DNA from: a virus
Taxonomy: Duplodnaviria > Caudoviricetes
Direction: 5' to 3' (one strand)
Virus record (IMG/VR): IMGVR_UViG_3300042868_013143
Coordinates: 1-52,935 of that record
DNA: 52,935 nucleotides
Shown piece by piece: positions 23,063-43,979 of the stretch. Made by a program: the position numbers and the translations under genes. Position 1 is the first letter of the stretch; each line of letters begins with the position of its first letter. The notes under the pieces were generated by a model. It saw nothing but the letters and a program-made list of their open reading frames with translations, did not search any database and was not told the DNA's origin.

Positions 23063-23090
23063 TGTAACTTTTTTTATATTTGTACGTATA
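23063..23090 (+). promoter_or_regulatory. TGTAAC-N16-CGTA (ECF-like) promoter of tRNA operon 1
   Basis: One of 7 copies with invariant 16-nt spacer. Confidence 0.75.
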
Positions 23091-23121
23091 AAAGAAAAAA
23101 ATACATATTTATAAAGGTAAA

Positions 23122-23205
23122 ATGAAAACAACAGTAACAAATAGGAGATCTAGTTGGTCGAGTTCGAGAAGAGCCGAATCAGGGATTCTATTGTCTGCGC
23201 TGTAA
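23122..23205 (+). CDS. Attenuator leader peptide 1 (MKTTVTNRRSSWSSSRRAESGILLSAL)
   Basis: Ten consecutive Arg/Ser/Trp codons matching the downstream tRNAs; contains antiterminator strand GAATCAGGG. Confidence 0.8.
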   Translation: MKTTVTNRRSSWSSSRRAESGILLSAL

Positions 23206-23235
23206 AGATATAGTGCTTGAGCACAAGCTAATTTG

Positions 23236-23274
23236 AAACCCTGATTCTAAAAAAGAGTCAGGGTTTTTTATTTT
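23236..23274 (+). terminator. Attenuator terminator 1
   Basis: AAACCCTGATTCT-AAAAA-AGAGTCAGGGTTT plus T run; 5' arm is also complementary to 23176-23184. Confidence 0.85.
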
Positions 23275-23287
23275 AAATTAATTTATC

Positions 23288-23719
23288 ATGAGAGAAGAAG
23301 TTTATAATAAGTTGGTGCTAAAGCTAGGCGAGGAAAAAGCTGACGAAGTGCGTAAGGCTATGGATGAGGCAAATAAGCAACGAAAGAATGTTGAAAAGTG
23401 GAACAGAGAAAGAGATAAGAAATTTTTGGAAGTTGGAATTAAGAAAGAGGATTTAGAAGATTGTGCATATTATCATGGGGTTAGATTTAGAGGACATGGA
23501 ATAGCGCAGTGGGACAAGAAGCTTGATAGGTTTATAATAATAGCATATGAGTGGGGAGTTCCTGTTATTGAAAAGCTAGAACATTTTGTTGATGTTGTTG
23601 AAAAAAGATATGATGGATTTGTGCCGATAGAAGAGTTAGATAAAAATAAGTATTATGATATCAGGAAAATGGATCCTAAGAAAATTGAAGAAGAGGTAAA
23701 AAATAGAAAATTGGAATAA
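23288..23719 (+). CDS. Hypothetical phage protein (first gene after attenuator 1)
   Basis: 143-aa ORF. Confidence 0.75.
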   Translation: MREEVYNKLVLKLGEEKADEVRKAMDEANKQRKNVEKWNRERDKKFLEVGIKKEDLEDCAYYHGVRFRGHGIAQWDKKLDRFIIIAYEWGVPVIEKLEHFVDVVEKRYDGFVPIEELDKNKYYDIRKMDPKKIEEEVKNRKLE

Positions 23720-23727
23720 ATAAATAA

Positions 23728-23814
23728 GGAGGAATAAGAGCAGTTGGTCTAAGCTTGGCGGTCTTGAAAACCGTAGGCCCTAGTGGTGTGTGAGTTCGAG
23801 TCTCACTTCCTCCG
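23728..23814 (+). tRNA. tRNA-Ser(UGA)
   Basis: GGAGGAA/TTCCTCC acceptor, GCGGT-CTTGAAA-ACCGT, long variable arm, TTCGAGT loop, G73. Confidence 0.92.
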
Positions 23815-23830
23815 CTGAAAAAAAATTGAT

Positions 23831-24010
23831 ATGCAAGAGAGAATGATGTACTTAGGTAAGGAAAAAAACAAAAAAGTATATGAAAATTTTGATGCTAATT
23901 TTGATAAGTACAAAAAAAGGGCAATTGATAAAGGGTATAAAAATCCTAAGTTAAAAATTCTCAAAGAGAAATCAATAGTGAAATTCTATGTTGTTGTAGA
24001 GATAGAATAG
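23831..24010 (+). CDS. Small basic hypothetical protein (59 aa) inside the tRNA cluster
   Basis: Open frame ATG..TAG filling the spacer between two tRNAs. Confidence 0.6.
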   Translation: MQERMMYLGKEKNKKVYENFDANFDKYKKRAIDKGYKNPKLKILKEKSIVKFYVVVEIE

Positions 24011-24026
24011 AATTTTAAAATAACAT

Positions 24027-24097
24027 ACAGATGACAGGCTTGGTGTCGGTGGGAACTCCAAATTCTTCACGAGTCGCTTCGATTGCGGCCATCTGTG
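24027..24097 (+). tRNA. tRNA-Trp(CCA), atypical D arm
   Basis: ACAGATG/CATCTGT acceptor, GGGAA-CTCCAAA-TTCTT, GTCGC-TTCGATT-GCGGC, G73. Confidence 0.75.
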
Positions 24098-24106
24098 CTA
24101 TAATAA

Positions 24107-24192
24107 GGAAGATAAAGCGACAAGGTTGTCGTCCTCGCCTGCTAAGCGTAGGGTTCTGAAAGATGAATGGGAATCGTTTTCTCTGTCTTCCG
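24107..24192 (+). tRNA. tRNA-Ser(GCU), atypical T loop and anticodon stem
   Basis: GGAAGAT/GTCTTCC, CGC-CTGCTAA-GCG, long variable arm, G73. Confidence 0.75.
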
Positions 24193-24207
24193 CAAAAAAT
24201 AAATTAT

Positions 24208-24282
24208 GGCTCCGTAGCTCAATTGGAATAGAGCATTGGGATTCTACCCCAACGGTTATAGGTTCGAATCCTATCGGAGTTA
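24208..24282 (+). tRNA. tRNA-Arg(UCU)
   Basis: Canonical cloverleaf; TTGGG-ATTCTAC-CCCAA. Confidence 0.92.
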
Positions 24283-24299
24283 CAAGGGTGAAATAATAT

Positions 24300-24374
24300 G
24301 CCCCCATAGCTCAACTGCATTAGAGCACCGTTTTTCTACAGCGTCGGTTACAGGTTGGAATCCTGTTGGGGGTA
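24300..24374 (+). tRNA. tRNA-Arg(UCU), second copy with C19-G56
   Basis: GCCCCCA/TGGGGGT, loop TTTCTAC, T arm ACAGG-TTGGAAT-CCTGT. Confidence 0.82.
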
Positions 24375-24395
24375 CAAAAAAAATTTTTGTATTTG

Positions 24396-24423
24396 TGTAA
24401 CATTTATTATTTTTGTTCGTATA
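24396..24423 (+). promoter_or_regulatory. TGTAAC-N16-CGTA promoter upstream of the structured ncRNA region
   Basis: TGTAAC 24396-24401, CGTATA 24418-24423. Confidence 0.75.
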
Positions 24424-24433
24424 GATAAACAAA

Positions 24434-24883
24434 TGGCGAATTCTTTGGAGAATGATGTGCAGTCATGAGCCGTCATGCAAGGGACACCAAATCATAATAT
24501 GGTGTTAATGGATCGAAGCCCCGATTCGCCACTTTAATGTTCTTTGAAAAATTGAAAGTGAATGTGCAACGAAAGTTCTTGTAGGCATACAAGAGTGAGG
24601 TGGGTTCGAATCTCGTTTAATAATCCCAATGACATGGTGGGAGCCAAGTAGTTGAGAACACATTATATCCATTTTAGGGGAGGCGCTGATAAATTCCCCA
24701 TAATAGTGCTGAGTAAACAGGATCAGCACCACTTTCAATTGCATTAAAACCACTCAAGCGTAAAAAGGTCGTAAGTTGGGGAAAGGCACGGAGCAGATAC
24801 CAGAAATGACTCGTCAGAGGATATGGAATACGTTGACAGAAGATCCCAATGTTTTGACCCCGTGCAAGCCTCTGAGTGGTTTT
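24434..24883 (+). ncRNA. Unidentified structured ncRNA region (three closed domains)
   Basis: Closing helices 24434/24531, 24550/24740, 24746/24883; internal hairpins; GC-richer than flanks; no credible ORF. Confidence 0.65.
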
Positions 24884-24889
24884 TTATTT

Positions 24890-24996
24890 AGTCAGGTGGC
24901 GGAGTGGCTTAACGCTGAGCATACATAGAGTCTGGGAATGTGGTATGTATGATACCTATACACGGGGACTCGCAGGTTCGAATCCTGTCCTGGTTA
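24890..24996 (+). ncRNA. tRNA-like RNA with intact acceptor, D and T arms but no canonical anticodon arm
   Basis: AGTCAGG/CCTGGTT, GCG-GAGTGGCTTAA-CGC, GCAGG-TTCGAAT-CCTGT; ~55-nt insert in the middle. Confidence 0.7.
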
Positions 24997-25031
24997 CTAT
25001 ATTTTTTGTAAAAAAATTTATATTTATTATT

Positions 25032-25067
25032 ATGAAAACAAATAAAATATCTCTTCAGTTCTGGTAG
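25032..25067 (+). CDS. Possible third leader peptide (MKTNKISLQFW)
   Basis: MKT start 3 nt after TATTTATT; FW-stop lies in a hairpin ending 5 nt before the next ATG. Confidence 0.4.
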   Translation: MKTNKISLQFW

Positions 25068-25084
25068 TTTAAACCAGAATACAT

Positions 25085-25783
25085 ATGAATAGAAAAAATC
25101 CCCACTTTAAAGAGTGGTTAAAAGTTTGGGAGGAAGTCCAAACTTTAATTGATTACAAACGTAATCGTAATTGGATTCCATTGGAAAAGCCTTACAGAAA
25201 AGGCTATTGGATGTCTTTTGACCTTCGTGAAGATATTAAAAATCGTGAAGATGCTTGGGTGTTTTATACATGCATTGAATTGTTTGGTACACATACTTGG
25301 TGTAAAGACAAAACAATGACATATAAATCTAGAAAGAAAAAGCCAGAGCCAATTGCCCTTGAGAAGAAGTTAATATCAGAAGAGAAATATGAAAACTTGC
25401 CAAGCGCAGTTCAAAAATATTTTTCAGAATCATCTAGCTACAATAAAGGCTGGAATCCATATAGAAAAACTTATTATTGTAATGTTCCAGATTATTTCTT
25501 TGTATACAAGTTAGAACCTAGATGGATAACACACTATCAGGAAGTAGATTCTGTTATTGAGCAAGAAATAAGTGAGAAGCGTGATTATGTTGATAAGAGC
25601 CCAAAATTTCAAAATGTAGGAAAGTGGAGTTATAATGCTCCAAAGTCATTCTGCAAATTTTTAAACAGAAGCGATAGAAGACTTAACAAACAAGTTCTTC
25701 AAAAAAACTTGATGTCAGAAGATTGGGATAAGTATGAATATAAATATAATCACAGACATTACGCAAAATGGTTGTATTGGTAA
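25085..25783 (+). CDS. Basic, aromatic-rich hypothetical protein
   Basis: 232-aa ORF, IPLEKPYRKGYW..FDLREDI. Confidence 0.8.
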   Translation: MNRKNPHFKEWLKVWEEVQTLIDYKRNRNWIPLEKPYRKGYWMSFDLREDIKNREDAWVFYTCIELFGTHTWCKDKTMTYKSRKKKPEPIALEKKLISEEKYENLPSAVQKYFSESSSYNKGWNPYRKTYYCNVPDYFFVYKLEPRWITHYQEVDSVIEQEISEKRDYVDKSPKFQNVGKWSYNAPKSFCKFLNRSDRRLNKQVLQKNLMSEDWDKYEYKYNHRHYAKWLYW

Positions 25784-25813
25784 AAATTAAAAAATATTTA
25801 TTGAAAAAACCAA

Positions 25814-26818
25814 ATGATTTGTCAGCTTTATACATACAATGAAAATGGTCACTCTCTTGATCAGAATACAGCAGAACATTTTGCAAAAAGGTTTTCGCTA
25901 GACACTTTAAAAAAGGGTAAAGTACATTGGTTGAATTATCACTCTGTGGAATTCAAGGATGAACTATCCAAGATGTTTGATAATTTGGAAATTAGCCCTT
26001 TTATCTTAGAGGATATTTACAAGCTAGAAAAAAGACCAAAGGTTGAAGAATATGCAAATTGTATATTTTTTAAAGTTCAATCACTTCTTCCTGAAAAAGA
26101 TGAAAATCATTTAAACAAAGAAAGTGTGTCATTCATATTGGGTGATAATTTTTTAATTACCACCCAAGAACAGAAATCAGGACACTTTGATGCAGTAAGA
26201 GATAGAATAGAGAACAAGAAAGGTAAATTATGTTTTAAGGGTGCTGATTATTTGCTGTTTAGGTTGTTAGATGCCATTATTGATAATTACTTTGAAGTCA
26301 TAGAGTCAAACATTAAAAAAATCCAACAAATAGAAAAATCACTTTCAAAATCAGATAGCTCTGTATTAAAAGAAATTGAAATAGAAAAGAGAAAAATAAT
26401 GGAACTAAAGAAAATTGTTTTTCTAACTAAAGATGTTATTTCTCACATAGAAAGATTGGATAGTAATCTTATTAAAGAAGAAAACTTCTATTATTTTTCA
26501 GAACTAAAAGATGAATGCTTAACAATTTTAGATGAAATAGATACAGCCTCTCAAATGCTCGATGGTTTATCTAATTTATTCTACGCTATTCAAGGTCAGA
26601 GAATGAACGAGATAATGAAAATGCTTACGTTGGTTAGTACGATATTTATACCTATAACTTTTATAGCTGGAATATACGGAATGAACTTTAAGTATATGCC
26701 CGAATTAGAACAGCCATATGCTTATTATACAATATGGGGCATCATCATTATAACTGTCTTTTCTTTCTTGACTTTCTTTAAGAAAAAGGGGTGGTTAAAA
26801 AGTGGAAAAGATAAGTAG
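25814..26818 (+). CDS. corA: CorA Mg2+/Co2+ transporter
   Basis: RPKVEEY, MNEIMKMLT, IPITFIAGIYGMNF..MPEL signature, two C-terminal TMs. Confidence 0.95.
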   Translation: MICQLYTYNENGHSLDQNTAEHFAKRFSLDTLKKGKVHWLNYHSVEFKDELSKMFDNLEISPFILEDIYKLEKRPKVEEYANCIFFKVQSLLPEKDENHLNKESVSFILGDNFLITTQEQKSGHFDAVRDRIENKKGKLCFKGADYLLFRLLDAIIDNYFEVIESNIKKIQQIEKSLSKSDSSVLKEIEIEKRKIMELKKIVFLTKDVISHIERLDSNLIKEENFYYFSELKDECLTILDEIDTASQMLDGLSNLFYAIQGQRMNEIMKMLTLVSTIFIPITFIAGIYGMNFKYMPELEQPYAYYTIWGIIIITVFSFLTFFKKKGWLKSGKDK

Positions 26819-26859
26819 TTTTTTGGTTTTTAAGACTATTTATTGAAAAACATTTTTTT

Positions 26860-28218
26860 ATGAATCTAAGAAAACATATCCAAAAAGAAATTAGTAGAAT
26901 ATTGTCTGAAAGCGATTATTTGCCTTTGGGTGCTGAATATATAGAAGATGCGCCATATAATCAGGAAGATCCATCTATTAGACAAGGTAAAAATCCAAAA
27001 GAAAGCAAATATTCACCTGTTTGGCATGGCTATAATGCTGGGTTTTGTATTTTAAAAGATTCAAATGGTAAATTATATTCCTTTTCTTATGATGGAATAG
27101 ATAAGGGTGATTTTGAGCCATATGCCAAAAGAGAGGTTGTTGGTTATGATGAAGATGGTTGGCCTGAATATGCTGAACTTGAATTGGATGGTGACACACT
27201 TGCTGCATATGTAAACGATAATATTGATTCATTAACCACTGGAGTGGGAAGAAAAGATGAATTGGATGGAACAGATATTGTTTTGATTGACAAAGAATGG
27301 AAAGATGGTTGGTTAGAGTACGCTCATAAAAAAGGTATGGGAGATAAAAATCAGGAGTTTATTGAAATTCTTTCTAACTATAATCCAACAGAATCTTTAG
27401 AAGAGTCTGCTCCATACGAGGCTAAAATGCCAAATGAAGAATTCGAAAAAGTTGTTTTTGAATATGAATTTCCTTCTAATGAAAATAGATTGCAATTAAT
27501 TAACATAATCAAAGATTATTTTGGTGAACCACTAGGTAAAGGTAGGGAAGATCAATATTGGTCAACATATATTCCTAAATTGGAGTTGGAAGATTTTATG
27601 TTTGAGGCTCAAGATTTTAATCCATATCCTACAGGAGATGTAATTATGGCAAATAGATTTAAGCCTCTAACAAAAGGTTTAAAAGATGGCGAGATTATAA
27701 AGTTTTTTGATTATACTGTTAGTGAGAATGACCCGCCAAGAGCAGAGGGTTATTTGAAACCAGGGTTCATCCAAAGAAATAGATCTTTAATGAAGTGGGA
27801 TGGAGATGCAAAAGAAGCTTGGATTGACAATTCTATGATTGATAAGTATTATTTCTACCACGGAAATGTTTCCGACATTAAAAATCATCCAGGTAGTAGA
27901 AAGCTTGATTCGGATTATGCAAAAATATTCTTCGACGATTCAATTCTTGATAATATGAATGCAGAACAAGAAGACGAGCTAAGAAACATCATAACTAGCC
28001 ACAAAGGTCAACTGAGATATGTATTTGGTAAAGAAAGAGCTTCTGGCGGTCAAAGATATACATTAGTTCCTCAAGATTTGGCGGATGATTTCATTCAAGC
28101 AGCGTATGATTTTGGCGCTCAATACGCCGAAACAGAAAGGAATATATATTTGGAAGATAAAGCCTTAAATGAAATAAGAAAAATTGTTAGAGGGGTAATC
28201 AATAATGTCATTAAGTAA
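26860..28218 (+). CDS. LRK-tagged acidic protein (putative head-associated)
   Basis: MNLRKHIQKEISRILSE and C-terminal LNEIRKIVRGVI; TATTTATT at 26837. Confidence 0.75.
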   Translation: MNLRKHIQKEISRILSESDYLPLGAEYIEDAPYNQEDPSIRQGKNPKESKYSPVWHGYNAGFCILKDSNGKLYSFSYDGIDKGDFEPYAKREVVGYDEDGWPEYAELELDGDTLAAYVNDNIDSLTTGVGRKDELDGTDIVLIDKEWKDGWLEYAHKKGMGDKNQEFIEILSNYNPTESLEESAPYEAKMPNEEFEKVVFEYEFPSNENRLQLINIIKDYFGEPLGKGREDQYWSTYIPKLELEDFMFEAQDFNPYPTGDVIMANRFKPLTKGLKDGEIIKFFDYTVSENDPPRAEGYLKPGFIQRNRSLMKWDGDAKEAWIDNSMIDKYYFYHGNVSDIKNHPGSRKLDSDYAKIFFDDSILDNMNAEQEDELRNIITSHKGQLRYVFGKERASGGQRYTLVPQDLADDFIQAAYDFGAQYAETERNIYLEDKALNEIRKIVRGVINNVIK

Positions 28219-28220
28219 TT

Positions 28221-29381
28221 TTGAGTTTAAGAAAAATAATAAGAGAAAGTTTGGAGGCGCTCTTAAATGAGGGCGCACCAAAAAATCTTATGCCCTTAAA
28301 TGAAAAAAAGAAAAAGAAAAGAAAGACTAAACAGCCATTAATGGCAACGCCAACAGGCTCTATTTTTTTTATGGATGCAGCTGTGAGTGAAATTTCAGAA
28401 AGCAAAAAAACTAAAAAAAAAGTTTTAACTGAATCCCTAGCAAACAGAAAAGTTCCAAAAACTTTTGACCACTTAAAGTGGGGTTTAAATCAACAACAAA
28501 AACATTTCCTGCAAGATTTTATAGATACTCACCCAGATACAATGAAAGAGTCTGATTACGAGTATGCTTCAAAAATGACAGGTATACCAGCAAAAAGTAT
28601 AAAGTCTATACAGAATACTTATGGTTCTTGGAATGGAAAGAGTGATGAGCTGGATCCTCAAGATATTAATTCATACGGCAAATTTGCTTTTGGAAAAGGA
28701 GATGTATTTAATGCCAAGGATTATGATTTCCCTCAAAAATATAGAAATGATGTTGTAAATTTTAAGACAATATCAAAAGATGAGGCGGACAATTTAAGAT
28801 ATCCAAAAAAGTCTTTAAGACAAAAGAAATATGAATCAGATTTAGCTGGCTCTATAGGCGGTTCAGTTCGAAAGTCAGATGTGAAAAGACCAGAAGATAA
28901 CTACGATGAGTGGTTAAAGTATTATATTGTTGGTGAGGCAAAACCTAAAGATTGTAGATTAAATAAAGAAAAGAATCAGATAGAGGTAGATTTTGAACCA
29001 TCAGATGATTATTATGATTTCCACAAGTCTATGTTGAATTCAAATAAGAAAAGCAAATTTTGGATTTCAGTCGAAAGTTTAATCAATCAATTCAATGATG
29101 CTTTTGGGACTTATTATATGATAGATGATCAATATGATTTGACACAGGCAAAAAGTAATTGTATAAGATTGGTTGTAAAAGAAATTGCCACTTCAGATAA
29201 GATGCTTTGGGATTCTGATTCGAAAACATATATTCCTTGGGAATACGCTCCTGAAGATTTGAGAAAACAACACTTGGCTCATAAGTCTTGGAATTTGGCA
29301 AAGCCAACTCCAAGCGTAGACTTTAATGAGCTTTTAGATAAGTATTTAAACTTCCACCACTCAATGTTTCAGGGTTTATGA
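28221..29381 (+). CDS. LRKIIRE-tagged protein (putative head-associated)
   Basis: SLRKIIRESLEALLNE; several LxE sites; TTG start. Confidence 0.75.
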   Translation: MSLRKIIRESLEALLNEGAPKNLMPLNEKKKKKRKTKQPLMATPTGSIFFMDAAVSEISESKKTKKKVLTESLANRKVPKTFDHLKWGLNQQQKHFLQDFIDTHPDTMKESDYEYASKMTGIPAKSIKSIQNTYGSWNGKSDELDPQDINSYGKFAFGKGDVFNAKDYDFPQKYRNDVVNFKTISKDEADNLRYPKKSLRQKKYESDLAGSIGGSVRKSDVKRPEDNYDEWLKYYIVGEAKPKDCRLNKEKNQIEVDFEPSDDYYDFHKSMLNSNKKSKFWISVESLINQFNDAFGTYYMIDDQYDLTQAKSNCIRLVVKEIATSDKMLWDSDSKTYIPWEYAPEDLRKQHLAHKSWNLAKPTPSVDFNELLDKYLNFHHSMFQGL

Positions 29382-29896: not shown

Positions 29897-30084
29897 AAAA
29901 ATCTATTTTTCCACCTTTTAATCCCTTATAAATAAGGAAAAAAACTAATCAACATCTTGTGGAAAAAAAGCTTTAAAAAAAGTCTTTTTTTTCTGAATAT
30001 TCGGTTCATATTCTGAAAATATATCTATTTATAAACAGAAGATAAGCGTTCTTTTTATAGTATGAAATTTAAATTTAGTCAAGT

Positions 30085-30408: not shown

Positions 30409-30463
30409 GTTCTGTTCAGTTAATATATAAAAGTTATCGACTATGCTATTTATTAGTGTGGTT

Positions 30464-30490
30464 GGTAACTTTTTTTTGTTTTATTCGTAT
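30464..30490 (+). promoter_or_regulatory. GGTAAC-N16-CGTA promoter variant
   Basis: Same spacing as the other six copies. Confidence 0.6.
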
Positions 30491-30533
30491 GATATATTAA
30501 ATTTGTCGGTATTAACGATATAAAACACGTCTT

Positions 30534-30704: not shown

Positions 30705-30714
30705 AGTATATAAT

Positions 30715-36274: not shown

Positions 36275-37672
36275 ATGGAGATAAAGCAAATTCTAGATGA
36301 GATTTCGAGTGAACCTGGAAAGAATCAGAAAATGGTTATTCTAGGTAAGTATGCAGACAACGAACTATTGAAGCGTGTGTTGTATATGGCAAACTCTAGT
36401 CGAGTGAAGTTCTATATCAAGCAAATTCCTGAGTATACTCGTAAAAATGAGCAAACAAATACGTTGGACTTTGTTATCAACGAACTAGGTCATATCTCAA
36501 GAAGAGAGGTGACTGGAAATGATGCGTTGCGTTTCTTAAGCGATTTGTTGTCCACATTGAGTCCAAATGATGCTTATGTGATTGAGCGCATTATCGAAAA
36601 GGATCTTAAAATTGGAATGGATTCTAGCATTAATAAAGTTTTCAAAAACCTTATTGAAGAAACTCCTTATATGGGTGCAGTTTCTTTTGATGAGAAGAAA
36701 GCTAGAAAGTTGTTTGATAAGGGTGCTAAGGCATATTCGCAAGTTAAGATGGATGGTCGCTATTGCAATGCCACAATTAACGATGGGGAAGTATATCTAG
36801 AAAGTCGTCAGGGCGAACCAACAATTGTTACTGGTGCAAAATTTTTAGAGGAATTAGCTTTGTTGGACAATATGGTTCTGAATGGTGAACTGACAATGGA
36901 TGGAGTTCCACGTTATGAGTCGAACGGAATTATTGCCTCAATTATTGACATTTGCGGAAAGCGTGATGCAAGAACTGAACAGGAAAACTCCAAGAAACTT
37001 TCTACATTCGAAGAGAAGCACGGAAGTTTCGAAGATGCATTGGCTAAAATTCGTTATACGGTTTGGGATGTGATTACCATTGATGAGTATAACGCAGCTA
37101 GTTCAAAAACTCCATACAATATAAGGTTAAAAAACCTATCATGGTTTATATTTGGTGGCGAACATACTTTAAGTATGGTCTCAATCATTCAAAATAGAGA
37201 GGTGAATACATTCGAAGAAGCAATGAACCACTTTAAAGAAATGCTTGGCAGAAATGAAGAAGGTACAATTCTTAAAGCTCAAAATGGTGAGTGGAAAGAT
37301 GGCAAGCCGACTTGGCAAATCAAACTGAAGTTGGAATTGACTTTGGATTTGGTAATCACTGGATTTAATTATGGTACGAAAGGTACAAAGAACGAGCACG
37401 TTGTAAGCTCTTTGAATGCTGAGACATCTTGTGGTTTACTCAAAACTCGTCCTCAAGGACTAAAAGAAGACTTGATGAAAGAAATTACCGAGAATCAAGA
37501 GAGTTTGTTGGGCACAATTATCGAAGTTAAATGCTCAGGTCTTTCCTTTGACAATACGGGTGCATATTCACTTTTATACCCAGCATTCAAACACTTCAGA
37601 GACGATAAGGGCACAGCCAATTCATTAGATGAGTGTATAGAAATTCAAAACGCAGCTTTAGGGCTATCTTAA
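36275..37672 (+). CDS. ATP-dependent DNA ligase (T4 gp30-like)
   Basis: KMDGRY motif I, LNGEL, EEGTILK, IKLK, C-terminal PAF..FRDDK. Confidence 0.92.
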   Translation: MEIKQILDEISSEPGKNQKMVILGKYADNELLKRVLYMANSSRVKFYIKQIPEYTRKNEQTNTLDFVINELGHISRREVTGNDALRFLSDLLSTLSPNDAYVIERIIEKDLKIGMDSSINKVFKNLIEETPYMGAVSFDEKKARKLFDKGAKAYSQVKMDGRYCNATINDGEVYLESRQGEPTIVTGAKFLEELALLDNMVLNGELTMDGVPRYESNGIIASIIDICGKRDARTEQENSKKLSTFEEKHGSFEDALAKIRYTVWDVITIDEYNAASSKTPYNIRLKNLSWFIFGGEHTLSMVSIIQNREVNTFEEAMNHFKEMLGRNEEGTILKAQNGEWKDGKPTWQIKLKLELTLDLVITGFNYGTKGTKNEHVVSSLNAETSCGLLKTRPQGLKEDLMKEITENQESLLGTIIEVKCSGLSFDNTGAYSLLYPAFKHFRDDKGTANSLDECIEIQNAALGLS

Positions 37673-37687
37673 TTTAAAACAATAAAA

Positions 37688-38137
37688 ATGAAAAATTTAA
37701 TTTTAGTATTATTCGTTGCGATGAGTGCAACATTGTTTGGTCAAAACAAAATCAATTATTATACTTCTGCAGGATTATCAATTTCAAACTCAGGAGATAC
37801 AACGTTTTCATATTCTTCTTATCCATCTATTGAGTTTGGTGGAATGTATGACAACATTGGAGTTGGGTTGGTGTTAGGAAGAAGTAATCTTTCTGGGTTT
37901 AGGTCTGATGTGATTAGTAATTATTGGTATGAAATAAAGACTTCCGCTTGTAAAACAGTAGGATCAGCAAGTGTTTACGGGTTGTTTGGAATTGGAAACT
38001 ACTTGTCAACAAAAAGAGTTTTTATCGAATATGGTGCAGGTATTTCTTACACATATAAATCAGTTAGTTTTTTTACACAAGCAAGTAATTGGGATGGGTA
38101 TTGGTATGTAACTCCTGGTATTACTTATAATTTTTAA
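37688..38137 (+). CDS. Secreted small outer-membrane beta-barrel-like protein
   Basis: Signal peptide, alternating aromatic strands, C-terminal GITYNF. Confidence 0.65.
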   Translation: MKNLILVLFVAMSATLFGQNKINYYTSAGLSISNSGDTTFSYSSYPSIEFGGMYDNIGVGLVLGRSNLSGFRSDVISNYWYEIKTSACKTVGSASVYGLFGIGNYLSTKRVFIEYGAGISYTYKSVSFFTQASNWDGYWYVTPGITYNF

Positions 38138-38142
38138 CCTAT

Positions 38143-38910
38143 ATGAATATTTTTAAACCTTTCGAAAGTGTTAATGGCAAAGCCAAGACACTGATTTTAT
38201 CAGGATGGCTATTGTTCGTAACTGCTATGTGGATTATGTTTTCATTCAGTGAAACACATATGTTCCCAACTCCTAGTCAGGTATTTGGCGGAATGGCCGA
38301 ACTATACAAAGAGGGTCTGATAGTGCATATATTTAGCTCTCTTGCTTTGTGTGCTAAATCTGTACTTATTGCAATCGTTATCTCACTATCATTTTCATAC
38401 TTATCTACTCTACCTATTATATCTCCGATATCAAATGTTTTGAGCAAATTTAGATATTTGCCTCTCACTGGTATTTCTTTCTATATTGCAATTTTATTGA
38501 GTGATGGTAGAGCAATTCAGGTGTGGGTTCTTGTAACCTTTATGACAACGTATCTAACAACTTCGTTACTTGCAATGCTTAAGGATATTCCCCAAGAAGA
38601 GTTTGACCACGCTAGAGCGCTTGGTTGTAATAGATGGGAAATACTTTGGGAAGTCGTTATTAAGGGTAGGCTCGATTATGTAATAGAGGTAATCAGGCAG
38701 AATCTTGCTATTGTATGGATGATGCTTGTAACTGTAGAATCAATCTTAGCTGCAGCGGGAGGATTGGGATTTCTAATCAAAAACTCAGACAAGATGATGA
38801 ACCACGGAAGAATCATTGCGTTACAATTAGTAATTTTACTTGTTGGATTATTTATGGACTTTGCTCTTACGTTCCTTAGAAAGAGACTATTTAGATACTC
38901 AAAGATTTAA
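38143..38910 (+). CDS. NitT/TauT-type ABC transporter permease
   Basis: FPTP, EAA-like FDHARALG, LVTVES...GGLGF. Confidence 0.88.
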   Translation: MNIFKPFESVNGKAKTLILSGWLLFVTAMWIMFSFSETHMFPTPSQVFGGMAELYKEGLIVHIFSSLALCAKSVLIAIVISLSFSYLSTLPIISPISNVLSKFRYLPLTGISFYIAILLSDGRAIQVWVLVTFMTTYLTTSLLAMLKDIPQEEFDHARALGCNRWEILWEVVIKGRLDYVIEVIRQNLAIVWMMLVTVESILAAAGGLGFLIKNSDKMMNHGRIIALQLVILLVGLFMDFALTFLRKRLFRYSKI

Positions 38911-38912
38911 TT

Positions 38913-39065
38913 ATGGTTAATTATATTTTAGGTTTATTAAAGGGGATGATAATTGGAATTTGTATCGTAAGTTTAGATTCAGATTATTGGGGTTATCCTT
39001 TGGTTGTAGGCACACTTACATTAATTGGTGTTGTAATTGAAATTAAAAAATTATATAGGAAATGA
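38913..39065 (+). CDS. Small two-TM membrane protein (50 aa)
   Basis: Hydrophobic ORF with ATGA overlap into the ABC ATPase. Confidence 0.6.
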   Translation: MVNYILGLLKGMIIGICIVSLDSDYWGYPLVVGTLTLIGVVIEIKKLYRK

Positions 39066-39880
39066 AATACGAAATTAAGGAAACAATACTTTATTTAGAC
39101 AATGTAAGTGTTGCATACGATGGAAAGACAATTATAAAAGATATTACTCTTTGCGAAAAAGATGTAATCTCTGCAGGAAAGGTGGTTGGTCAAACCATTG
39201 CTATTGTTGGAAGATCAGGAAGAGGAAAGTCAACTTTATTTAAAGCATTGACTGGCCTTGTGAAACCAACAACAGGTCAAGTTTTAATTACAGATGTCAA
39301 TAGTGATATTAAAGATGATGCGAAGCTTGTATCTGAAGGAGATGTTGGTTTTGTAGATCAAAAATATACACTATTCCGTCATAAAACAATTCAGCAAATT
39401 TGTAACTTTGCACTTCGTAAGAAGAATATAAGCAAAGAAGAAAAGGCAAGTATGATTGATAAGTATTTGACTGATTGGGGGTTGTTCGAGCATAAAGATA
39501 AATATCCTTGTGAACTTTCGGGTGGTCAAAGACAAAGAACTGCAATCATTGAACAAATTCTTTCTTCTGGTCATTTTATGGTTTTTGATGAGCCATTCAG
39601 CGGTCTAGATGTTGGAAACATTCAAAACGTAAAAAACTCATTCAGCTTAATTCAGCAAAGTCATGAGTTGAATACAATTATCTTCTCCACTCACGATATA
39701 AATTTGGCAGTTGAATTGGCTGATAGTATTTATGTGATTGGACATAAAGATGGTTGTAAGGACTATAGTACAATTGTTAAGCATTATGACCTTAAAGAGA
39801 TGGGTTTGGCTTGGGAAGATTTTAGTCCAAAACATTTAAAACTAGTAGAAGAAATTAAATCAGTATTATTAAATTCATAA
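39062..39880 (+). CDS. ABC transporter ATP-binding protein
   Basis: GRSGRGKST, LSGGQRQR, FDEPFSGLD, STHD. Confidence 0.94.
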   Translation: MKYEIKETILYLDNVSVAYDGKTIIKDITLCEKDVISAGKVVGQTIAIVGRSGRGKSTLFKALTGLVKPTTGQVLITDVNSDIKDDAKLVSEGDVGFVDQKYTLFRHKTIQQICNFALRKKNISKEEKASMIDKYLTDWGLFEHKDKYPCELSGGQRQRTAIIEQILSSGHFMVFDEPFSGLDVGNIQNVKNSFSLIQQSHELNTIIFSTHDINLAVELADSIYVIGHKDGCKDYSTIVKHYDLKEMGLAWEDFSPKHLKLVEEIKSVLLNS

Positions 39881-39883
39881 ATC

Positions 39884-41326
39884 ATGGCAGAAGAAAAATC
39901 AAAATCAAAAAATCAAAGAGACATTATCGTTAGTGTAATGAGATCAAAATTTAATGAATATTCAGATTCTGAGTTATATCCATCAGCAGCATTAGGTGTA
40001 GAAATAAACTTATCAGAGTTGAAAAATGCTTGCAAGAATAGTTCTAGGTCAAAGATTGATCCAAACACAAAAAGCTTTAGACCATATAGTGTTGACTACG
40101 TTAAAAACGATGTACTTCCAAGTATGATATTGGAATATGGATTTAGTCAAAAAGAAAAAGGTCTAACAGTAAAAAGTGAAGCTGGAATGTTTGCAGTTAG
40201 GTTTACAGATAACTCTGTAATGATGTTTGCTCAACGAATAGTTGGTATGGGCAGAAATCAATCTGTTGAGACATATGCACTTGCAACAAGACAAACATTG
40301 AATAAATACTATTCATATCTTAACAGACAGGCTAAGATAAATTCAAAACCAAAAGTAGGACTATTTAAAATATCAGTAAAATCAAGTCCTATGGGAGATA
40401 GGCTAAATTATACTCCTATTAAAGGTAAAATGACTGAGAAGAAAGTCTATCACCAAAATAAAAAGCTTGTTGAAAATGATGTAGAACAATTCTTTGATAA
40501 CGTTAATTTGTATACACGATTCAATCAGCCTGGATCAAGAAGGCTATTATTGGTTGGAGAACCTGGTGGGGGTAAGACAAGTGCTGCAAATGAAATAGCT
40601 ATGAAACTGTCTGAAAAAATGTGTGTTGTAATCGCAACAGATTTAAAAGCTGTTATGATGCATACTTACAATATTTCAAAAGCAGAAATGCCAACACTTA
40701 TTATATTGGAAGACGCAGAATCAACAATTCCTTGGGGTAATTCAGATGTTCTTAATTACTTGGATGGAATTAATCAACCAAGAACAACAAAGGGTTGTTA
40801 TATGATTTTGACAACAAACTATCCTCAAAGAATCGAGCCGAGAGTTCTTAAAAGACCAGGTAGAATTGATAAGATTATTAAATTCGGAGTCCTAGACCAA
40901 GTAAATTCTATTATGTGTGCAAAGCATTATTTTGAAGGAATTTTGTTTGATTCAAATAAAGATAAAGCATCTACAGTAGAAGAAATGTTGAAACAGGTAT
41001 ATGAGAAGATTATTGCTGTTGATAATGAGACTGGAATGACAGGAGCTCAAATAAAAAACCTTTCAGAGGCAACAATTTCTTATGCAATATCTAATAACAC
41101 TGAAAAGATAAATATTGATACAATCATTGCTGTTAGAGATCAGTTAAGTAAAGATTTGAAAGATGTTTATGAAATGGCTGATGATGAAAGTATGAGCGCA
41201 AATAAGCCATCTCCAATTGGATTTGATATCTCAGACGGCAAGCGAAAAAATACATGGGAAGAATCTTTGGACTGGGATTCTATAATAAATCCAGAAAAAA
41301 GTAAAGGAAATGATTTGAGTTTTTAA
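39884..41326 (+). CDS. AAA+ ATPase
   Basis: GEPGGGKT, ILEDAE, LNYLDG, TTNYP, RPGRID; IGF near the C-terminus. Confidence 0.88.
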   Translation: MAEEKSKSKNQRDIIVSVMRSKFNEYSDSELYPSAALGVEINLSELKNACKNSSRSKIDPNTKSFRPYSVDYVKNDVLPSMILEYGFSQKEKGLTVKSEAGMFAVRFTDNSVMMFAQRIVGMGRNQSVETYALATRQTLNKYYSYLNRQAKINSKPKVGLFKISVKSSPMGDRLNYTPIKGKMTEKKVYHQNKKLVENDVEQFFDNVNLYTRFNQPGSRRLLLVGEPGGGKTSAANEIAMKLSEKMCVVIATDLKAVMMHTYNISKAEMPTLIILEDAESTIPWGNSDVLNYLDGINQPRTTKGCYMILTTNYPQRIEPRVLKRPGRIDKIIKFGVLDQVNSIMCAKHYFEGILFDSNKDKASTVEEMLKQVYEKIIAVDNETGMTGAQIKNLSEATISYAISNNTEKINIDTIIAVRDQLSKDLKDVYEMADDESMSANKPSPIGFDISDGKRKNTWEESLDWDSIINPEKSKGNDLSF

Positions 41327-41397
41327 AAAAAATTCATACTGATTATCAGACATTTAAATGATATTTTTATTTTTTTTAAAAAAAGTTTTGTTTTTTG

Positions 41398-41425
41398 TGT
41401 AACTTTTTTTAATTTTGTACGTATA
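41398..41425 (+). promoter_or_regulatory. TGTAAC-N16-CGTA promoter of tRNA operon 2
   Basis: Near-identical to the 23063 copy, including flanks. Confidence 0.78.
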
Positions 41426-41476
41426 AATTAAAGAAAACAAAATTTTATAACTATTTAGAATTAAAATCATTTAAAG

Positions 41477-41605
41477 ATGAAAACAGTATTAACATATACA
41501 GCAAATATCCCCGCTATGCCGATGAACGGCTTAGGGAATGGGTATGCCCCTGCCGATTATAGCTTGGGAGAAGCGAGTGTGTTATACTTTAAAGTAATCT
41601 TATGA
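41477..41605 (+). CDS. Attenuator leader peptide 2 (MKTVLTYTANIPAMPMNGLGNGYAPADYSLGEASVLYFKVIL)
   Basis: 14 of 17 codons at 41510-41560 are Pro/Ala/Met/Gly/Tyr/Asp; contains antiterminator strand 41570-41586. Confidence 0.78.
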   Translation: MKTVLTYTANIPAMPMNGLGNGYAPADYSLGEASVLYFKVIL

Positions 41606-41634
41606 TAGATTAGATTTAAATAAAAAAATATAAC

Positions 41635-41670
41635 AAAAGCTCGTTTCGAAAGATTCGAGCTTTTTTGTTT
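41635..41670 (+). terminator. Attenuator terminator 2
   Basis: AAAAGCTCG..TC-GAAA-GA..CGAGCTTTT plus T run. Confidence 0.82.
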
Positions 41671-41729
41671 TATAAACGTTTTTTGACATATTGGTGATGA
41701 AGTTGAAAGCTAACAAGGTTAGCAAATTT

Positions 41730-41805
41730 CTGGGTGTGGAGGAATTGGTGCCTCGCCTGCTTTGGGAGCAGGAGCTTAATGCAGGTTCGAGTCCTGTCAC
41801 CCAGA
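41730..41805 (+). tRNA. tRNA-Pro(UGG)
   Basis: CTGGGTG/CACCCAG, CCTGC-TTTGGGA-GCAGG, A73. Confidence 0.92.
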
Positions 41806-41815
41806 CAAATAAAAT

Positions 41816-41896
41816 GGCTACGGCGCATAATGGCTGGTGTACCCGACTGTCTATCGGGCGTGAATAACGTAGAGGGTTCGATTCCCTTCGTAGCCG
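41816..41896 (+). tRNA. tRNA-Asp(GUC) with extended variable arm
   Basis: GGCTACG/CGTAGCC, CCCGA-CTGTCTA-TCGGG, G73. Confidence 0.85.
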
Positions 41897-41942
41897 CAAA
41901 TAGCCTTAAATATCCAAGTAACCCCTTGGTGGCTTTATAAAC

Positions 41943-42025
41943 TGGAAGGTGGGTGAGTGGTTAAAACCAACAGACTGTAAATCTGTTCTCGCAAGGGTAC
42001 GGCGGTTCGAATCCGTCCCTTCCAA
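41943..42025 (+). tRNA. tRNA-Tyr(GUA)
   Basis: TGGAAGG/CCTTCCA, ACAGA-CTGTAAA-TCTGT, long variable arm. Confidence 0.92.
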
Positions 42026-42031
42026 CAACAA

Positions 42032-42125
42032 CTAGCGATGATCGAGAGGTTGAAGATGTCCGACTTGGAATCGGATGCGGGCACACAGTAGGTGTCTGCC
42101 GTGGGTTCGAATCCCGCTCGCTAGA
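42032..42125 (+). tRNA. tRNA-Pro(UGG) with long variable arm and A37
   Basis: CTAGCGA/TCGCTAG (C1-G72, A73), TCCGA-CTTGGAA-TCGGA, 8-bp variable stem. Confidence 0.8.
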
Positions 42126-42271
42126 CTAAATTTAAAAACAATTAAAATGATAGGTCAAGGAGGCAACAGCTTGGACGCCTGAGTAAACACGATAGGGTCG
42201 AGCTAAGAAAAAAAGAAATTGGAAGTAAGAAACATAGAAAGCTTAGAAAGTATTCTGATGGTTTTAATGAG

Positions 42272-42664
42272 ATGTTTACATTCTTCCTACAAGGTTACAG
42301 AAAGGGTCTGTTTAGTTTCTGCGGATCCATCGTTGTAACAGAATTTGATGTAAATGGAGATGAAGGCAAGTTTTGTTTCAGAAGATTAGAAAATGGAGAG
42401 TACAAACCTGGTGAAATTCCCAAGACAAGACATTCAAATATTTTAAAGGGTGTTATATCAGGAAAGAAGGGCTGGGGTTTGTGGGTTGATCAATGGTCAG
42501 ATGGAATTGTTGATTGGACATTTACAGAAGAGGAAATATTAAGTGAGTTTGAAAAGAGGAGTGTTAAAATCCCCGAACCACTTCTACGAGATTTCTACAA
42601 TAGAATCGATAAGAAGAAGAGAAAGAGAAACTTAGAGTACTTTGAAATGTTGAATAAAGAATAA
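42272..42664 (+). CDS. Hypothetical protein inside the tRNA cluster (start uncertain)
   Basis: Frame is open from 42146 but the first ATG is at 42272. Confidence 0.65.
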   Translation: MFTFFLQGYRKGLFSFCGSIVVTEFDVNGDEGKFCFRRLENGEYKPGEIPKTRHSNILKGVISGKKGWGLWVDQWSDGIVDWTFTEEEILSEFEKRSVKIPEPLLRDFYNRIDKKKRKRNLEYFEMLNKE

Positions 42665-42670
42665 TAAAAT

Positions 42671-42744
42671 GGGGCTATGGTGACAACTGGCTAACACGCT
42701 GCACTTGCACTGCAGAGATGGGGAATCATACTCCTCTAGCTCCA
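42671..42744 (+). tRNA. tRNA-Ala(UGC), atypical T loop
   Basis: GGGGCTA/TAGCTCC with G3-U70, CTGCA-CTTGCAC-TGCAG, T loop ATCATAC. Confidence 0.85.
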
Positions 42745-42800
42745 CTAACAGAAATGGTAATCCGATACCGCAAACTGAAAACTAAAGAAAATCGGAATAA

Positions 42801-42872
42801 GGGAGTATCGACAGGGTCTGGTCGTGTCTGTAAAACATCGCCTTATTGGTTCAATTCCAATTGCTCCCACCA
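42801..42872 (+). tRNA. tRNA-Tyr(GUA)-like, short variable loop, encoded CCA
   Basis: GGGAGTA/TGCTCCC-ACCA, TGT-CTGTAAA-ACA, ATTGG-TTCAATT-CCAAT. Confidence 0.7.
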
Positions 42873-42922
42873 AATGGTTGATTTTGTACTTTTTTTGACT
42901 ATTTATTTAGAAATAGATAGAT

Positions 42923-43543
42923 ATGCCAAGAAAAGAAAAGAAGTATCACTTCATTTATAAAACGACGAACTTATTGAGTGGTAAGTATTACATTGGAATG
43001 CACTCCACAGAAAACCTAGAAGATGGTTATTTGGGCTCAGGAAAAAGGTTGAGATATTCCATAAATAAATATGGTGCGGAAAACCATAAGAGAGAAATAC
43101 TTGAATTTGTTGACTCAAGAAAAGAGTTAATAAATAGAGAAAAAGAAATTGTTAATTTAGATGAAGTTGCAAAAGAGGAGTGCATGAACTTAATGGTTGG
43201 AGGTAAAGGTGGTTTTACACCAAACATTCAAAAAAAAGGTATTAGTGCTTGGTTAGATAAATACAAAGGAGGAGAAAGTCATAAAGAGTGGGCTAAAAAA
43301 GGCGGAATTAAGAGGTTTGAATTATATGGGATTCCAAAAAAATTCAAACCTGATTGGGTTGGCAGAAAACACACAGAAGAAACAAAAGAAAAAATGAGAA
43401 TTTCCAGCAAAGGTAAGAGTACTGGAAGTTTAAATTCACAATACGGAACTTTTTGGATTACGAAAGATGGGATTAACAAGAAAATAAAAAAAGAAGAATT
43501 AGATTTTTTTATCCAACAAGGATGGATTAGGGGTAGAAAATAA
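42923..43543 (+). CDS. SegB-like GIY-YIG homing endonuclease with NUMOD3 motif
   Basis: FIYKTTN..KYYIGMH..GYLGSG; GRKHTEETKEKM. Confidence 0.9.
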   Translation: MPRKEKKYHFIYKTTNLLSGKYYIGMHSTENLEDGYLGSGKRLRYSINKYGAENHKREILEFVDSRKELINREKEIVNLDEVAKEECMNLMVGGKGGFTPNIQKKGISAWLDKYKGGESHKEWAKKGGIKRFELYGIPKKFKPDWVGRKHTEETKEKMRISSKGKSTGSLNSQYGTFWITKDGINKKIKKEELDFFIQQGWIRGRK

Positions 43544-43549
43544 ATTAAT

Positions 43550-43622
43550 GCGGTAGTAGCTCAGTTGGTAGAGCACCGTCCTTCCAAGTCGGGGGTCGCA
43601 AGTTCGAGCCTTGTCTACCGCT
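43550..43622 (+). tRNA. tRNA-Gly(UCC)
   Basis: GCGGTAG/CTACCGC, loop CTTCCAA, U73. Confidence 0.92.
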
Positions 43623-43628
43623 CTAAAT

Positions 43629-43777
43629 AAGAGGCTATATAGATTTGTTACTTCTATGTGGAACAGTTGGCGCAAGCCTTCGCAGTGTTCGAATCCTGCT
43701 CCCCCGACGAGGTTTTAATTCGGGGGATAGCCAAGTGGTAAAGGCAACTGTAAGAATTACTTCTATGATTTCCTCTT
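43629..43777 (+). ncRNA. YrlA-like Y RNA (circularly permuted tRNA-like domain)
   Basis: Order is T arm, closed acceptor stem, D arm; terminal helix AAGAGG/CCTCTT; GTTACTTC motif. Confidence 0.7.
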
Positions 43778-43781
43778 AAAT

Positions 43782-43854
43782 GCGATAGTAGCTCAGTTGA
43801 TAGAGTACAACCTTGCCAAGGTTGGGGTCGTGGGTTTGAGCCCCATCTATCGCT
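43782..43854 (+). tRNA. tRNA-Gly(GCC) with A19-U56
   Basis: GCGATAG/CTATCGC, CAACC-TTGCCAA-GGTTG, U73. Confidence 0.9.
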
Positions 43855-43907
43855 CTAAAAATGTAGATTAATATAAGTAACAAAGCGGGTGAAAGTCCCG
43901 CAAACTT

Positions 43908-43979
43908 GCCGATGTCGTATAATGATAGTACGGGTCCCTCATAAGGACTAGGTTTAGGGTTTGATTCCCTTCATCGGTA
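43908..43979 (+). tRNA. tRNA-Met(CAU) elongator (or Ile2) with A19-U56
   Basis: GCCGATG/CATCGGT, GGTCC-CTCATAA-GGACT. Confidence 0.82.

Follow-up and report, generated by a model that had tools for sequence, protein, structure and literature searches.

How might a phage that carries its own transfer RNA (tRNA) genes confine their expression to the times when those tRNAs are in demand? The question is raised by two tRNA gene clusters in a 52,935-nucleotide (nt) stretch of viral DNA, IMG/VR record IMGVR_UViG_3300042868_013143, which is one contig, was analyzed as the whole record, and is referred to below as the window. Upstream of both clusters lies the same layout: a promoter motif, a short open reading frame (ORF) beginning MKT, a strand capable of pairing with the 5′ arm of a terminator, an intrinsic terminator, and then the tRNAs (Table 1). 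Each of these parts had been named in the original prediction, made from the sequence alone, which read the short ORFs as the leader peptides of attenuators, and each could be located. Judging from the codon content of the leaders, their conservation, and their modeled alternative pairings, we consider it likely that both tRNA clusters stand under ribosome-mediated (leader-peptide) attenuators in which the sensed tRNA is also the product. Since that product would be the limiting tRNA itself, such an arrangement would amount to a multi-input, negative-feedback controller of tRNA supply.

Leader codons match the tRNAs encoded downstream

Both leaders are loaded with codons for the amino acids of their own cluster's tRNAs, as originally predicted. 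Measured against the amino-acid composition of the 36 long ORFs of the window, 12 of the 26 residues counted in leader 1 fall in the set Ser, Trp, and Arg (0.117 expected; P = 1.3e-5), including ten consecutive S/W/R codons, and 19 of the 41 residues counted in leader 2 fall in the set Pro, Asp, Tyr, Ala, Gly, and Met (0.269 expected; P = 6e-3). Under a strict wobble rule, by which U34 reads A or G only, 8 of the 26 codons of leader 1 remain cognate to a downstream tRNA (P = 1.7e-4). The tRNAs themselves were called with ARAGORN and Rfam, including runs at lowered thresholds (ARAGORN -ps85 or -ps80; Rfam E ≤ 1). Most of the tRNA identities assigned beforehand are supported by Rfam, namely Ser-tga, two Arg-tct, two Pro, Asp, Tyr, two Gly, Met, and Ala; the Trp, the Ser-gct, and a second Tyr appear at the lowered ARAGORN thresholds alone.

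The sensor runs, by which we mean the matched codons in the central part of each leader, also over-use codons that are rare in the long ORFs of this phage (TCG, 3%; CCC, 5%; CCG, 6%; GCC, 5%; and GGG, 8% of their respective families). Their G+C content is 0.47 in unit 1 (23143-23172) and 0.57 in unit 2 (41510-41560), compared with approximately 32% for the genome. The over-use of rare codons may give sharper sensitivity, or it may be in the service of the helices described below.

Leader composition tracks tRNA content among related units

Relatives of the two units were gathered using an extended form of the promoter pattern in IMG/VR and a metagenome collection, and then a looser pattern in IMG/VR; for each promoter match, the first ORF and the downstream tRNAs were read. 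The relatives of the window, denoted here by L numbers, are IMG/VR viral contigs, and L001-L004 have a flanking ATPase with 76-92% protein identity to that of the window. The strict pattern yielded 22 distinct units, 2 of them cut off, and leader, terminator, and tRNAs occur together in 16 of the 20 that could be assessed. Three of the 20 have no tRNAs, and in these the first ORFs are ordinary ones of 63-214 amino acids.

Across these related clusters, leader codon content co-varies with the downstream anticodons for five to six leader types, in line with what had been expected. Leaders with six or seven Gln codons (MKNFIQQQQQQQ..., MRNLFNTQQQQQQQ..., and variants thereof) precede three to five tRNA-Gln genes in L011, L014, L015, and L048. 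The leader of L027, MKNLINISNQVVRLFVVVLFVQLFLTA, contains the run QVVRLFVVVLFVQLFL and lies before Phe-gaa, Val-tac, Leu-aag, Leu-tag, Val-gac, Arg-acg, and Leu-caa; 14 of its 26 codons are cognate under the strict wobble rule, with a run of 11 (P = 1.4e-5). In L007, a leader rich in Asn, His, Thr, and Lys (MYGLNLHITINNTICNKKH...) stands before two Asn, one His, two Thr, and two Lys tRNAs. Diverged homologues of both window leaders behave in the same manner: that of leader 1 in L059 (MKTVTNNRSWSWRRSSSSSR..., with the run RSWSWRRSSSSSR) precedes Ser-tga (two copies), Ser-gct (two copies), Ser-gga, Arg-tct, Arg-cct, and Trp-cca, with 14 of 28 codons cognate and a run of 13 (P = 4e-7), and that of leader 2 in L074 precedes two Pro, two Asp, and two Tyr tRNAs. 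When five leader types are compared with five tRNA sets, the diagonal holds the maximum of every row, and the true pairing ranks 1 among 120 permutations.

The correspondence extends to the level of isoacceptors. With tct or cct as the tRNA anticodon, the leader spells arginine as AGA or AGG; with acg, it uses CGA or CGT. Similarly, the Leu codons of L017 and L027 (CTT, TTG, CTG, and CTA) correspond to Leu-aag, Leu-caa, and Leu-tag.

Two further arrangements were seen in the course of this survey. In L013 and L054 the layout is a variant one, with the promoter, a tRNA-Met within approximately 40 nt, a 24-codon leader containing E-x-E-E, a terminator, and tRNA-Glu genes that begin 5 nt past the U tract. 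The viral contig L071, which has the same promoter core, encodes a tRNA-Cys and a tRNA with the anticodon cta (amber-reading), and its first short frame past the promoter is ATG AAA AAG TAG; the phage in question may employ stop-codon recoding.

The leaders are conserved as reading frames

Leader 2 behaves as a translated ORF in sequence comparison. It has 42 codons in the window and in L001, L003, L004, and L074, and ends at the same codon with TGA, TAA, or TAG. Within the sensor half, the L001 copy shows synonymous changes alone, which keep the isoacceptor (GGC to GGT, AAT to AAC, GGG to GGA), and all six amino-acid changes fall within the last 12 codons. In the more diverged L074, 23 residues have changed, yet the number of residues in the matched set has risen from 19 to 24. 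Composition is thus kept while the order of residues changes, which fits a codon sensor and not a folded micro-protein. Leader 1 likewise recurs, with one substitution in L021 and as the diverged homologue in L059.

We also considered leader 1 as a decayed tRNA, given that AGTTGGTC...GAGTTCGAG bears some likeness to tRNA-Ser. This candidate was dropped, since the letters concerned simply spell the Ser, Trp, and Arg codons and both L021 and L059 carry the ORF as well.

Predicted alternative RNA pairings between leaders and terminators

The antiterminator strand of each unit, which we call segment 2, had been placed 15-33 nt before the leader stop; it lies at positions -28 to -14 in unit 1 and -34 to -19 in unit 2. 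For each unit, the best duplex that the leader region can form with the terminator's 5′ arm and loop was compared with those obtained from 300 dinucleotide shuffles. The duplex has a predicted energy of -18.2 kcal/mol in unit 1 (shuffle mean -8.2; p = 0.003) and -14.8 kcal/mol in unit 2 (shuffle mean -9.7; p = 0.003, or 0.013 on repeat), and it beats the shuffles at p ≤ 0.05 in 16 of 19 units. As a cross-pairing control using natural sequences, every leader was matched with every terminator (14 of each), and the own leader was the best of the 14 for six terminators, including those of both window units, L059, and L074.

The helices of diverged homologues are made of different letters. For the cluster-1 type, CGAATCAGGGATTCT pairs with GAAACCCTGATTCT in the window and CGAGCCAGGC pairs with CCCTGGCTCA in L059; for the cluster-2 type, the corresponding partners are AGAAGCGAGTGTGTTA and AACAAAAGCTCGTTTCG in the window and TGGGAGCGGA and CCCGCTCCCT in L074. 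As these differing letters occupy the same place in the ORF, the complementarity has been maintained through turnover of the sequence. An intrinsic terminator is present in 12 of 12 units of the first set and in all 7 new units among the 9 of the second, and terminator 2 is invariant in the five loci that were aligned. (A simple scanner misses terminator 2 because its loop exceeds 8 nt.)

Folding predictions for the two window leaders reproduce the states expected of an attenuator. The unconstrained fold contains a segment 1:2 pairing together with the terminator; masking the 3′ arm of the terminator lets the antiterminator sequester the whole 5′ arm; and masking segment 2 allows the terminator to form. 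In simulations of the nascent transcript carrying a ribosome footprint, the probability that the 5′ arm is sequestered is 0.7-0.9 with the A site at codons 2-15 (unit 1) or 2-29 (unit 2), and 0.2-0.4 with the ribosome on the last approximately ten codons. The switch between a stall in the sensor and a ribosome near the end of the leader is therefore predicted as it had been foreseen, a statement that holds for these two ribosome positions (see below for the others).

The position of the tRNAs is also informative. Among the relatives, about 5-17 nt separate the terminator from the first tRNA in units of the Gln, Phe, and Glu types, which leaves no space for a separate promoter; in several relatives the distance from the U tract is 5-11 nt, so that transcription must cross the terminator. 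Unit 2 of the window has a 58-nt spacer between terminator and tRNA, which is kept in close relatives and diverges near its tRNA end in L004; in neither window unit does the promoter motif recur between terminator and tRNAs.

A proposed mechanism of demand-driven tRNA supply

From these features we infer that, in vivo, the leaders would be translated, that ribosomes would stall on them, that readthrough would be regulated, and that its products would feed back on the switch. A transcript would start at the phage promoter, and its short leader, whose central codons are those read by the downstream tRNAs, would be translated. Slow decoding of any one of the sensor codons would stall the ribosome upstream of segment 2; the free segment 2, which belongs to the final third of the ORF, could then pair with the 5′ arm of the terminator, and RNA polymerase would read through into the 143-amino-acid ORF and tRNAs of unit 1 or the tRNAs of unit 2. 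Under fast decoding, the ribosome would occupy segment 2 during synthesis of the terminator, the hairpin would form, and transcription would stop. The timing would presumably matter here, with a ribosome that trails the polymerase covering segment 2 as the 5′ arm emerges and the short-loop hairpin closing first.

A number of our results weigh against this interpretation. On the side of the codons, leader 2 has 14 cognate codons among 41 under the strict wobble rule, a marginal enrichment (P = 0.07), and its codon match taken alone is only moderately convincing; the Glu-type leaders contain just 3 Glu codons (P = 0.28). The tRNA-Trp and tRNA-Ser (gct) of cluster 1 have low scores and are unseen by Rfam at E ≤ 1, a shortcoming for which the canonical Trp-cca and two Ser-gct genes of the homologous cluster in L059 make up to the extent of lending the low-scoring window copies some credit. 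In L016, the remaining one of the 20 strict-pattern units, the tRNAs come only after 1.6 kb that includes ORFs and an HNH-like gene, and no leader was seen. The units of the relatives are, furthermore, partly non-independent, many of them being closely related. On the side of the RNA, the shuffle test failed for L048 (0.44), L054 (0.25), and L023 (0.10), and in the cross-pairing control the own leader comes second to fifth for six terminators and tenth for two, mostly of the Gln and Glu types. More fundamentally, a ribosome at the stop codon leaves segment 2 uncovered, and the predicted probability of sequestration returns to 0.7-0.8 (window units, L004, and L007); with no ribosome at all, both window units are again predicted to be ON (0.80-0.84), the corresponding value in Gln-type relatives being 0.12-0.19. 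Since a ribosome that is at the stop or absent is predicted to give the ON state in this footprint model, which is an equilibrium one, the OFF state needs kinetic coupling between ribosome and polymerase. Lastly, the RNA sequencing runs checked for the window DNA gave no match.

Other explanations of the same features

One alternative is that the leaders act as untranslated RNA elements, such as a riboswitch or a T-box-like leader that binds tRNA, and that the ORFs in them are accidental. The leaders are indeed structured; however, Rfam has no family over either of them at the gathering score or at E ≤ 1 (two sub-threshold matches to small RNA families, E ~0.06-0.07, both fall on terminator 1), and the frame and length are kept while the stop interchanges among TGA, TAA, and TAG and the sensor half shows synonymous change alone, so that we give this explanation hardly any credence. 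It is also very improbable, if slightly less so, that the short ORFs are independent micro-protein genes, with a codon match that has no regulatory meaning and with tRNAs transcribed by constitutive leak-through or from other promoters. A promoter, small ORF, and terminator do amount to a full gene, close relatives preserve leader 2 well, and the same promoter precedes a 66-amino-acid membrane protein gene in the relative L009. Against this, diverged homologues keep the composition and not the order of the peptide (L074, and L059 relative to the window), that composition follows the downstream tRNAs in five types, and non-synonymous changes are tolerated where the RNA pairing is kept; in addition, the tRNAs of the Gln, Phe, and Glu units begin a few nt past the U tract, and the stretches between the terminators and tRNAs of the window are free of the promoter motif.

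The two other explanations accept a translated leader and differ in what it reports. A terminator coupled to translation might respond to general translation capacity or to amino-acid charging, in which case extra tRNA would provide no corrective feedback. An ON state predicted without a ribosome would respond to a global loss of translation, and attenuators of the trp and his type cannot distinguish a missing tRNA from an uncharged one. A general sensor has no need of codon matching, however, and the matching seen here is specific to cluster and isoacceptor, which makes this account rather unlikely in our view. Somewhat better placed, though still doubtful, is the idea that the attenuators serve mainly in counter-defense, with a leader stall switching on phage replacements when host anticodon nucleases cut tRNAs; this idea, already contained in the original prediction, would be a special case of the supply controller that we favor. 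The sensors are isoacceptor-resolved and multi-input, properties that would be required to detect unpredictable losses of tRNA, and the tRNA sets of these units include what we take to be nuclease targets (Lys, Tyr, Arg, and Asn/His/Asp). Cleavage of tRNA-Tyr by Septu is mentioned in the portion of PMC13096335 consulted. On the other hand, Pfam and PHROG scans of the window show no tRNA repair genes or nuclease inhibitors, and the relatives jointly carry tRNAs for most amino acids, for which general supply in an AT-rich and probably very large phage is at least as good an explanation; moreover, AGA makes up 73% of the phage's Arg codons, and two Arg-tct genes are carried. Large phages could conceivably use modular, isoacceptor-resolved leader sensors that also detect a host attack on the tRNA pool, whether by anticodon nucleases or by tRNA degradation; cleavage of one tRNA would then stall the ribosome at the corresponding leader codon, bring in a phage replacement within seconds, and be followed by renewed shut-off, a proposal we regard as doubtful. 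Supply control by leader-peptide attenuation thus seems to us the most probable of these accounts.

The promoter is shared with other genes of the phage

The motif TGTAAC-N16-CGTATA had been put forward as common to the two tRNA units, and it is found before both, the two copies being near-identical across approximately 45 nt; it is not specific to tRNA units. The + strand of the window carries six copies, five of them exact (23063, 41398, 24396, 31928, and 36231) and one with a single mismatch (32456), compared with a shuffle expectation of 0.08, and the motif is therefore best regarded as a general promoter of the phage. A seventh match, also with one mismatch, lies on the - strand within tRNA-Arg. 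Three of the other copies in the window lie directly before ordinary protein genes, without leader or terminator. The core AAC-N16-CGTATA resembles promoters of the extracytoplasmic function (ECF) sigma type, and we take the TAnnTTTG element within the motif to be like the Bacteroidota -7 box, which makes a plain Bacteroidota sigma-A promoter a further candidate reading. The ORF at 9310-10533 contains no sigma domain recognizable by Pfam.

The copy at 24396 is followed by approximately 600 nt of structured, tRNA-like RNA (24396-25000), with no leader and terminator. This RNA has a long closing helix (24434-24531), TTCGAAT elements resembling T loops near 24600 and 24975, and odd "Cys-gca" and "His-gtg" calls by ARAGORN with introns allowed and an 80% threshold. 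Rfam has no match in 24424-24900, and the first domain reaches a fold z-score of just -1.1.

Genes and other elements of the two units

Table 1. Positions of the leader, terminator, and tRNA features in the two units of the window.
Feature	Position	Strand	Remarks
Promoter motif, unit 1	23063..23090	+	TGTAAC-N16-CGTATA
Leader ORF 1	23122..23205	+	27 codons + TAA; starts MKT; MKTTVTNRRSSWSSSRRAESGILLSAL
Sensor run 1, codons 8-17	23143..23172	+	AGG AGA TCT AGT TGG TCG AGT TCG AGA AGA; all Arg/Ser/Trp (R R S S W S S S R R)
Antiterminator strand (segment 2), unit 1	23175..23189	+	-28..-14 relative to leader stop
Intrinsic terminator 1	23235..23271	+	14-bp stem (23235-23267), 5-nt loop, U tract; -21.1 kcal/mol
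143-amino-acid ORF	23288..23719	+	between terminator 1 and first tRNA
tRNA-Ser (tga)	23728..23815	+	ARAGORN, Rfam
tRNA-Trp (cca), low score	24027..24098	+	ARAGORN -ps85 only; not Rfam at E ≤ 1
tRNA-Ser (gct)-like, low score	24105..24191	+	ARAGORN -ps80 only
tRNA-Arg (tct)	24208..24283	+	ARAGORN, Rfam
tRNA-Arg (tct)	24300..24375	+	ARAGORN, Rfam
Promoter motif, unit 2	41398..41425	+	TGTAAC-N16-CGTATA
Leader ORF 2	41477..41605	+	42 codons + TGA; starts MKT; MKTVLTYTANIPAMPMNGLGNGYAPADYSLGEASVLYFKVIL
Sensor core 2, codons 12-28	41510..41560	+	14/17 Pro/Ala/Met/Gly/Tyr/Asp
Antiterminator strand, unit 2	41569..41584	+	-34..-19 relative to leader stop
Intrinsic terminator 2	41632..41672	+	GAAA-capped hairpin + U tract; -14.7 kcal/mol; invariant in 5/5 aligned loci
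tRNA-Pro (tgg), Asp (gtc), Tyr (gta), Pro (tgg)	41730..42126	+	ARAGORN, Rfam
tRNA-Ala (tgc)	42671..42745	+	Rfam 44.8 bits; ARAGORN -ps85
tRNA-Tyr (gta)-like, low score	42801..42872	+	ARAGORN -ps85 only; not Rfam at E ≤ 1
tRNA-Gly (tcc), Gly (gcc), Met (cat)	43550..43980	+	ARAGORN, Rfam

The genes downstream of the leaders are tRNAs, a 143-amino-acid ORF, a 130-amino-acid ORF, and a homing endonuclease, and not genes for amino-acid biosynthesis or aminoacyl-tRNA synthetases. The 143-amino-acid ORF, which the original prediction had left out of unit 1, is placed between terminator 1 and the tRNAs and hence inside the gated operon. It has 28 metagenome homologue clusters at 49-99% identity, one of them on a 393,507-nt contig, and its invariant residues include R66-F-R-G69 and E98-H-F100. 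Searches with this protein gave no Pfam or PHROG family and no usable Atlas match, and its AlphaFold2 (AF2) model (predicted local distance difference test score, pLDDT, 70) has no PDB match by Foldseek at E ≤ 0.001; scans of viral contigs for the ORF, using the single protein and alignment A2, gave no further members of the cluster-1 family.

Homing endonucleases of the GIY-YIG (PHROG 314) and LAGLIDADG types are encoded in or near the tRNA clusters, at 42923-43543 and 20956-21747, and among the relatives the promoter or leader is parted from the tRNAs by an HNH-like gene (L016) or an 848-nt insert (L048). These arrangements suggest that the tRNA operons have been remodeled by homing endonucleases. 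Inside the second gated cluster, positions 43629-43777 contain two tRNA halves in reversed order, a 3′ half (T arm plus acceptor strand) coming first and a 5′ half (acceptor strand plus D arm) after a 14-nt loop, which together make up a circularly permuted tRNA-like RNA; neither an Rfam match (permuted tRNA or Y-RNA was sought) nor an ARAGORN call was obtained for it.

The phage and its surroundings

By Pfam and PHROG, the protein genes of the window include a ribonucleotide reductase, a UvrD-type helicase, a ClpB-like ATPase, a DNA methylase, an ATP-dependent DNA ligase, CorA, parts of an ABC transporter, an OmpA-domain protein, glycosyltransferases, and the two homing endonucleases mentioned above. 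One window protein has a 93%-identical copy on the 393,507-nt contig, and the window most probably represents a fragment of a very large phage genome. The DNA sequencing runs that match it are lake and freshwater metagenomes. A megablast search of 22.5 kb of the window against a phage collection returned matches of tRNA size only, and a tblastn search of the same collection with the upstream AAA ATPase returned no match above 37.5% identity; no cultured relative was found in this manner.

Comparison with known systems

Leader-peptide attenuation is familiar from trpL, hisL, leuL, and pheL, and in multivalent form from thrL and ilvL. In the pheST attenuator of E. coli, a leader peptide controls an aminoacyl-tRNA synthetase operon. 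This is akin to the arrangement proposed here in that slow decoding of cognate codons acts, by way of a leader-peptide attenuator, on part of the translation machinery; unlike the phage units, pheST is a cellular gene system that controls a charging enzyme rather than a tRNA and has a single amino-acid input. T-box riboswitches (RF00230) also switch between terminator and antiterminator in answer to the state of a specific tRNA, but they bind the uncharged tRNA directly and require no translation, whereas the phage leaders are conserved ORFs; the T-box covariance model has no match over either leader at the gathering score or at E ≤ 1.

In the full-text literature, with subscription-only papers and supplements outside the scope, we found no description of leader-peptide attenuation of tRNA genes. 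As far as these searches show, such attenuation has been described for amino-acid and synthetase genes only, and its use for tRNA genes would be new. The nearest published account, going by the parts of the reports consulted, is that of the Anabaena trn operon, a long tRNA array that is silent until translational stress (PMC8421152, PMC10272220). There, too, an accessory tRNA array is conditionally expressed; the control differs in acting at the promoter, by way of direct repeats and the TrcR repressor, and in not being codon-resolved (PMC8421152, PMC10272220), and the part of PMC8421152 consulted contains none of the terms "leader peptide," "attenuat," and "terminator."

An attenuator of the kind proposed here would account for the way in which phages that carry dozens of tRNA genes avoid needless tRNA synthesis, and it makes the question of why and when phages use their own tRNAs directly testable. 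The rule that leader composition equals the downstream anticodon set would predict operon boundaries and the identity of odd, low-scoring tRNAs, and the leaders would furnish natural parts for codon-specific translation sensors.

The closest mechanistic counterparts are the attenuators of amino-acid operons, represented by pheL, the mechanism of which is treated in PMC3082878 (the part consulted contains nothing on tRNA genes). Common to both are a short leader with runs of regulatory codons and a set of 1:2, 2:3, and 3:4 pairings, with the position of the ribosome deciding termination in those operons, and the poly-Gln leaders of the relatives resemble the 7-His and 7-Phe runs of leaders of the hisL and pheL type. 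The differences are that the element here is encoded by a phage, that its leaders mix up to six amino acids and several isoacceptors, and that segment 2 precedes the stop by 14-34 nt, where a ribosome at the stop leaves it unmasked. Above all, the regulated genes here are tRNAs and one 143-amino-acid ORF, so that the output is the sensed molecule; with sensed quantity and product being the same, the phage attenuator would be a direct, isoacceptor-resolved, and multi-input supply-demand controller of decoding capacity.

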